From a virus (Duplodnaviria; Heunggongvirae; Uroviricota; Caudoviricetes), in the IMG/VR virus record IMGVR_UViG_2645727905_000011: a stretch of DNA of 9,608 bases; one strand, written 5' to 3'. The notes below the pieces were generated by a model, which saw only the letters and a program-made list of their open reading frames with translations, was not told where the DNA came from and did no database searches. Made by a program: the position numbers and the translations under genes. This document shows positions 6,451 to 6,964 of the stretch, piece by piece; positions within the stretch are counted from its first letter, which is position 1, and each line of letters begins with the position of its first letter.

Positions 6451-6884
6451 AACGAATGACACTAATTGAGATGGATGGATTTCTGAAAGGTAAATGCATC
6501 CCATGTGATTTAAAGGTTAACGAAACAAATGCTGAATATCTGGTACGCAAATTTGCTGAAGCGGAGGCCAAGTGCGCGGCGCTGGCGGCGGAGAATGCGG
6601 AGCTGAAGTCTGTGCACCCTCAACCATTCGGAGCAGAGATGATGAAGGCTCTTGATGAGTATGAGAAGCATCAGGATGAAGTGCCAGAGACTGGAATGCT
6701 CAATGCATTTTTCATCTTGCGCGACAGCATCCGTGTTGAAACCCCAGCCACCGACTCTTTCCTGTCTGAAGTGCGGGCGCAGGGGGTTGAGATGATGCGC
6801 GAACACCCATCAATCAAACTTTGCTCTTTGACGCACATATGTGATGAGTTAGCCGCCCAGCTTCGCAAAGGAGGCAACCAGTGA
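6447..6884 (+). CDS. Hypothetical coiled-coil protein (145 aa), possibly Ead/Ea22-like
   Basis: ATG 6447 coupled to the upstream stop; alanine-rich predicted coiled coil ([18 protein letters not shown]); in the ea-gene region between recombination genes and xis. Confidence 0.5.
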
Positions 6885-6964
6885 CTGGACATGCAGCAAT
6901 CCTCGACATGTGCTGTGGCAGTCGCATGTTCTGGTTAGATAAGAATGACGAACGGGCGAGATAA
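6881..6964 (+). CDS. 27-codon ORF with a methyltransferase motif-I-like N-terminus; possible remnant of a truncated gene
   Basis: Strong SD AAGGAGG 6 nt before GTG 6881 (GTGA overlap with the upstream stop). Translation [27 protein letters not shown] contains ILDMCCGS, resembling SAM-binding motif I, then stops just before the moron promoter. Confidence 0.25.
   Translation: MTGHAAILDMCCGSRMFWLDKNDERAR

Follow-up and report, generated by a model that had tools for sequence, protein, structure and literature searches.

Gene stubs at mosaic joints are familiar in phage genomes. In outline, a moron has been described as a promoter-ORF-terminator unit that is found in one genome and is missing between the neighbouring genes of its relatives (Juhala et al. 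2000; PMC3029335), and, again in outline, a study of HK620 has been cited for short conserved boundary sequences where genes of lambdoid phages adjoin (Clark et al. 2001; PMC3029335). The locus analysed here lies in a stretch of viral DNA of 9,608 nt (hereafter the window), in which an ORF at positions 6881-6964 is very probably a pseudogene fragment, consisting of the ribosome-binding site of a methyltransferase gene, its GTG and 26 codons, the body of the gene having been replaced by recombination with a cassette whose gene belongs to the lysozyme-inhibitor-like LprI family.

A prophage located beside mdtA in E. coli strains such as Z1323HEC0423 includes a stretch that is 100% identical to the window. 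The gene order is kil, a Rad52/Rad22-family recombinase gene, an HNH endonuclease gene, ssb, an anti-RecBCD gene, a DUF2737 gene (6286-6450), an Ea22-like gene (6447-6884), an unannotated gap, the LprI-family gene (7015-7713), a hypothetical gene (7949-8248), xis and int, so that the stub sits in the unannotated gap, in the early-left region of a P22-like or lambdoid phage. At positions 1-3882 the prophage looks rearranged and defective, with a Q-like antiterminator gene, ninH and rusA on the minus strand, in a block that adjoins a plus-strand YdfO fragment and genes for a PerC-family protein, a phage N6-adenine methyltransferase (2110-2763), a LexA-like protein and another RusA; pieces of a gene for a DnaB-like helicase are found at 3401-3541, and there is no immunity or replication module between these genes and kil. 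The HNH endonuclease gene (4998-5465) lies between the Rad52-family recombinase gene and ssb, two genes that are directly adjacent in related prophages (three loci: NZ_CP145718, L008 and L009), and it looks like a free-standing homing-endonuclease insertion. The features to which we refer below are the following:

6864-6884, plus strand: boundary sequence CGCAAAGGAGGCAACCAGTGA, comprising the final codons of the upstream gene (RKGGNQ and stop), the Shine-Dalgarno sequence AAGGAGG and GTG 6881
6881-6964, plus strand: ORF with GTG start, 27 aa plus stop (TAA at 6962-6964), from a program-made ORF list
6881-6959, plus strand: methyltransferase 5' remnant, codons 1-26, with SAM-binding motif I (ILDMCCGS), from codon alignment, tblastn, PHROG and PGAP
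6955-6959, plus strand: putative recombination joint GGCGA, from codon-by-codon comparison with five methyltransferase genes and three SSU5-like plasmids
6960-6973, plus strand: last 14 nt of a phiTE_072-family gene (R, E or stop, A, I, G, stop), from comparison with SSU5-like plasmids; it provides the stop of the stub, TAA 6962-6964
6978-6986, plus strand: TGcTATAGT, candidate extended -10 element for the LprI cassette, 14 nt past the TAA of the stub, from reading of the sequence by eye and regular expression
7015-7713, plus strand: cassette cargo, an LprI-family gene (PF07007/DUF1311) whose product has a signal-peptide-like N-terminus, from Pfam, PHROG and PGAP (WP_000789829)
7718-7755, plus strand: intrinsic-terminator-like hairpin and T-run, end of the cassette transcription unit, from a terminator scan
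7819-7877, plus strand: 3' remnant of an ASCH-domain gene, last 19 codons, DFGDYPVKIFEINVNIDNE followed by stop, from the DNA match to phage 933W, translation and tblastn

Start signals and methyltransferase homology of the stub

The first-pass annotation had described the ORF as a frame of 27 codons carrying the sequence ILDMCCGS, with AAGGAGG 6 nt ahead of a GTG that overlaps the previous stop, and all of this is borne out by the sequence and its translation. The Shine-Dalgarno sequence occupies 6868-6874 and is followed by the 6-nt spacer CAACCA and GTG 6881, which shares bases, in a GTGA overlap, with TGA 6882-6884 of the upstream 145-aa Ea22-like gene (6447-6884), and ILDMCCGS, which fits the hhDhxxGxG-like pattern of SAM-binding motif I, lies at residues 7-14 of the peptide. 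A sequence AGGAGG with a start codon 4-9 nt downstream occurs only twice when both strands of the 9.6-kb window are considered. The 27-codon frame by itself is uninformative, because 138 ORFs of at least 25 aa are present in the window.

The ORF had been read, preferentially, as the 5' stub of a methyltransferase gene, a reading made dependent on longer phage homologs that begin with the same sequence, and many such homologs were found by tblastn against phage genomes. The peptide was found in phage ev099, and it matches the N-termini of DNA methyltransferases of Escherichia, Salmonella, Erwinia, Klebsiella, Pectobacterium and even Streptococcus phages. Conversely, when an intact methyltransferase was compared with the window by tblastn, its residues 1-26 matched positions 6881-6958 with 92% identity (E=4.6e-14). 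At the DNA level, the stub is identical to intact methyltransferase genes at 75-77 of 79 nt in an ungapped codon alignment, or about 95%, and at 94-97% over 79-89 nt by blastn. Its first ~79-89 nt are present in hundreds of genomes, within the 5,426 complete E. coli genomes searched by blastn, under genes annotated as class I SAM-dependent methyltransferase. Searches with the 27-mer against PHROG rendered three DNA-methyltransferase families (phrog_11564, E=1.3e-11; phrog_7811, E=1.9e-10; phrog_954, E=2.5e-9), and searches of Pfam and NCBIfam rendered no match, the peptide being too short for these libraries. Judged from these comparisons, the likeness of the stub to methyltransferase N-termini is far above chance.

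The window does not contain the body of the gene, also in agreement with the preferred reading. DNA homology to intact methyltransferase genes ceases at about position 6959, and no counterpart of methyltransferase residues 27-157 (131 residues) was detected by tblastn in any frame of the window. The stub, which ends at residue 27, has neither the catalytic motif IV, of the form D/N-P-P-Y/F/H (FDPPH in intact homologs), nor a complete Rossmann-fold domain of ~150 aa. It cannot be a methyltransferase, since only motif I is left and the catalytic DPPH motif and ~130 residues are gone.

The parent gene is a small (157-164 aa) phage amino-type DNA methyltransferase gene of the early-left (ea) region of lambdoid and P22-like prophages. 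The intact copies compared encode proteins of 157 aa (O111:H8), 161 aa (p96_1414P-1, 19AR0253, CUVET19-1937 and C311) and 164 aa (an Stx2c phage), and include those of E. coli O111:H8 (WP_000145671), plasmid p96_1414P-1 (WP_000172331) and strain 19AR0253 (WP_063075093). In all of them the GTG start is the same and is preceded, across a 6-nt spacer, by the same AAGGAGG, and in relatives the genes that follow are Ea22-like and DUF551 genes. In the intact proteins motif I, ILDMCCGS, is located at about residues 6-14 and FDPPH at residues 69-73. An intact protein matched phrog_954, 'DNA methyltransferase', with E=2e-86, while its match to Pfam Methyltransf_11 was weak. In a search of the sequences of solved structures with an intact homolog the matches were marginal (1ve3, E=0.04; 2zie, E=0.8), too little to assign base specificity, and in the alignment ILDMCCGS is placed opposite VLDLACGVG of PDB 1ve3. 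In O157:H7 CPS-53-like prophages (e.g. ECP19-598, positions 2522-2995 of locus L003, and many O157:H7 genomes) the full-length copy of the methyltransferase gene is a pseudogene with an internal stop, W95*, whereas the O111:H8 copy is intact.

The joint with SSU5-like DNA and the LprI cassette

After the methyltransferase remnant, it is SSU5 and more than 200 SSU5-like plasmids that align with the window, at ~83% identity from 6946/6958 to ~7750. The codons found at the left joint are as follows:

Methyltransferase genes: GAC GAC CGG GCG ATA TTT AGC
Window: GAC GAA CGG GCG AGA TAA GCG ATC GGT TAA GTG CTA TAG T
SSU5-like phage-plasmids: GAC GAT CAG (G/T)CG AGA (G/T)AA GCA (A/G)T(C/T) GGT TAA GTG (C/A)TA TAG T

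The pentanucleotide GGCGA is common to the methyltransferase gene (CGG GCG ATA) and the donor (CAG GCG AGA), and lies within a stretch of 13 nt of which 10 are identical. Judging from this comparison, the last sense codon of the stub (AGA) and its TAA come from the incoming DNA, and not from the methyltransferase gene, the two reading frames happening to join in frame. At 6950-6952 the window has GAA, which differs both from the GAC of the methyltransferase genes and from the GAT of the donors. We infer the exact crossover nucleotide from diverged relatives, the closest copies of the cassette outside lambdoid prophages being only ~83% identical.

The counterpart of 6960-6973 adjoins LprI, directly upstream of it, in SSU5, in the E. 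coli plasmid cM2a p1 and in the Enterobacter plasmid pFJMB80005_2. In SSU5 and cM2a p1 it constitutes the 3' end of a complete phiTE_072-family gene of 183 aa; in the Enterobacter plasmid the annotated gene upstream of LprI ends earlier, and a TAA is found at the same position as the stop of the stub. Since 6960-6973 is part of a whole gene in SSU5 and cM2a p1 and a mere fragment in the window, the transfer took place from an SSU5-like element to a lambdoid prophage. The left joint, moreover, still holds 14 nt of the former neighbour of the cargo gene, and SSU5-like phage-plasmids can on this basis be identified as the source of an LprI-family gene that is now present in ~2% of complete E. coli genomes. 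Among the titles and abstracts listed in a literature search for LprI together with prophage, there was no account of this cassette.

The LprI-family gene was assigned by Pfam PF07007 (E=2.1e-5, above the curated cutoff) and phrog_4675 (E=3.5e-94), and its ribosome-binding site, GGAG, lies within the block that matches SSU5-like plasmids. Its frame is open from ATG 6988 (241 aa), and the start chosen by PGAP is ATG 7015 (232 aa), which is preceded at 7 nt by GGAG and from which the protein begins with a typical signal peptide, MKNILLASLLVASPGAFA. The terminator is made up of a 12-bp stem (7718-7745) followed by ATTTTTT, and begins 5 nt past the LprI stop. The match to pLF82 extends to ~7796. 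This plasmid (positions 1470-1600 of locus L018) is SSU5-like, has no LprI at the site, and still has the terminator hairpin and ~50 nt downstream of it (window 7722-7796). The LprI gene itself may be a variable insert within SSU5-like plasmids.

From 7819 onwards the window matches phage 933W at 96.8% DNA identity, in what is there the end of ST933Wp04, and the remnant of 19 codons matches the ASCH-domain protein of 933W by tblastn with E=5e-5. Two terminator-like hairpins, at 7880-7899 and 7911-7930, come after this remnant. The lost DNA thus spans from methyltransferase codon 26 to about codon 103 of the ASCH-domain gene. The presence on the right of a 3' remnant of the ASCH gene argues for a replacement rather than a clean insertion. 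Two claims of the first-pass annotation have to be amended in this light. It had been proposed that a moron insertion replaced the methyltransferase body; the body has been replaced, but not by a simple insertion, since the DNA up to the 3' end of the ASCH gene was also removed. It had also been stated that the ORF ends right before the moron promoter; an extended -10 element does lie at that place, and the TGnTATAGT sequence is kept in SSU5-like copies that are 83% identical overall, but the promoter is no more than a plausible candidate, given that a consensus promoter scan of 6965-7014 called no two-hexamer promoter, the -35 being poor.

The sequence of events that very probably produced this arrangement is the following. 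Illegitimate recombination within the 5-nt microhomology GGCGA (6955-6959) would have joined the methyltransferase gene, in frame, to an SSU5-like segment bringing in the last codons of the phiTE_072-family gene, the promoter-like element, the LprI-family gene and the terminator, and the same or a linked event would have deleted the DNA up to the last 19 codons of the ASCH-domain gene. The incoming TAA, one codon past the joint, closes the frame after 27 codons. Since the start signals are intact, transcription of the early-left operon may lead to translation of the stub into a short and probably inert peptide. The block made up of the stub, the cassette and the remnant of the ASCH gene would move between prophages as a unit, probably by homologous recombination at the left boundary sequence, AAGGAGGCAACCAGTGA.

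Spread of the junction and alternative readings

The left junction (6860-7000) was covered, in blastn searches, in ~107 of 5,426 complete E. coli genomes. Eight loci with stub and cassette were inspected. They do not differ in the left joint or in the 55 nt at 6960-7014, and all of them retain the ASCH remnant; the genes upstream (Ea22-like or DUF2737) and those downstream vary among them. The identity of the joint between different flanking genes points to one ancestral event, followed, as far as can be judged from sequence, by spread through homologous exchange. The boundary motif stands ahead of all the intact methyltransferase genes, whichever of four different genes lies upstream, and is found again at the 3' end of those that encode 161 aa, so that AAGGAGG(G)CAACCAGTGA is present at both ends of intact methyltransferase genes. 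The homology between the window and the loci of DUF2737 context starts at CGCAAAGGAGGCAACC. The motif is likely, in view of these homologies, to represent a point of homologous recombination at which modules are exchanged. In the form AAGGAGG(G)CA(A/G)CCAGTGA it is found at several ea-region junctions (window 6864-6884; positions 1809, 2507 and 2988 of locus L007; 3488 and 3969 of loci L008-L010), where it encodes the KGGNQ-stop terminus of one gene together with the Shine-Dalgarno sequence and the start of the following gene.

It is conceivable that the stub has been co-opted as a genuine protein of 27 aa, coupled via the GTGA overlap to the Ea22-like gene and with a role in lytic growth. The perfect Shine-Dalgarno sequence, the 6-nt spacing and the start that overlaps the upstream stop speak for such a gene, but these signals are merely those of the parent gene. 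None of the eight copies sampled has a break in the frame, and of the three nucleotide variants two are synonymous; the copies, however, differ by 0-3 nt in 84 (96-100% identity), which makes them too young for decay to show and their conservation uninformative, and the third variant is a non-synonymous change, A6T, in one copy. The phrog_7811 'methyltransferase' family has only 41 positions, which may mean that ORFs of comparable length have been called genes in other phage genomes. On the other hand, the C-terminal residue and the stop are accidental products of the joint, and what the ORF encodes is a fragment of a Rossmann fold that has neither a hydrophobic helix nor an independent motif and matches no Pfam or NCBIfam family. 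We consider this possibility very unlikely, and leave only a slim chance to the broader proposition that either a translated 27-aa peptide has acquired a role, or boundary and stub act as a homology handle with which the LprI cassette hops between unrelated lambdoid prophages.

That the ORF could instead control the LprI gene, be it as a leader, as a regulatory upstream ORF or within a structured 5' leader, is suggested by its end 51 nt before the LprI start and by the overlap of its last codons with the -35 position of the candidate cassette promoter. Such a gap, however, speaks against translational coupling, and the ORF lies upstream of the candidate promoter and would not be on that transcript. 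In SSU5-like plasmids, furthermore, the cassette is found without the ORF, the 3' end of the unrelated 183-aa gene taking its place. For the RNA of 6865-7030, the stability predicted for the fold does not exceed that of shuffled sequences (z=0.00), and an Rfam search rendered no match at E<=1, so that a leader function appears highly improbable. The chances are next to negligible, finally, that the frame is open fortuitously or that it is the beginning of a full-length gene broken by a point nonsense mutation or a frameshift, with the body downstream. Short ORFs are abundant in the window, as mentioned above, and a blastn alignment that ran to 6969 with a 1-nt gap could suggest a frameshift, but the part of it that reaches 6969 (AGCGAT) matches only briefly and by chance, past 6959 no frame matches the methyltransferase body, SSU5-like DNA being found instead, and the N-terminal homology is highly significant in both PHROG and tblastn searches. 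The codon comparison together with tblastn rules out a frameshift or nonsense mutation and refutes this explanation. No observation conflicts with the reading of the ORF as a pseudogene fragment, which is the one that we retain.

Comparison with annotated relatives, boundary sequences and morons

The stub as a partial methyltransferase is already known through PGAP annotation in one RefSeq genome, and it is an ordinary recombination scar and not a new gene. In NZ_CP145718 (E. coli S1-CAM-01-C) the gene V6S24_RS19620 is annotated as 'SAM-dependent methyltransferase, incomplete, missing C-terminus'. It is identical to the stub at 76 of 79 nt and has the same junction and the same LprI gene downstream, but the gene upstream is DUF2737 and not Ea22-like. 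In NZ_CP148334, which matches the window at 100%, the stub is unannotated. The correct label would be that of a partial methyltransferase pseudogene and not that of a small protein gene, which is of little significance beyond annotation. The locus provides, nevertheless, a clean textbook example of a phage mosaic joint, with an in-frame microhomology crossover.

In comparison with the intact small phage methyltransferases of lambdoid, P22-like and CPS-53-like prophages (PHROG 954/11564; WP_000145671, WP_000172331 and WP_063075093), the stub has the same Shine-Dalgarno sequence, GTG, overlap with the upstream stop and motif I, and the same early-left position behind DUF2737 or Ea22-like genes. 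It differs from them in that only 26 of 157-164 residues remain, with no FDPPH and with the rest of the fold gone. As to the sequence at its left end, AAGGAGG(G)CAACCAGTGA resembles the boundary sequences of lambdoid phages in marking the start of homology between otherwise different prophages, its use in recombination being suggested here by the homology breaks.

The LprI unit, on its part, is like the morons of lambdoid phages in that it consists of a promoter-like element, a single ORF and an intrinsic terminator, and in that it is present in a minority of related prophages. Unlike them, it has replaced DNA, leaving a 5' stub on one side and a 3' stub on the other, and has carried along 14 nt of its old upstream neighbour. 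Its flanks are thus two gene stubs, and not genes that are adjacent in relatives, so that the LprI unit has the content of a moron without having been cleanly inserted between genes.
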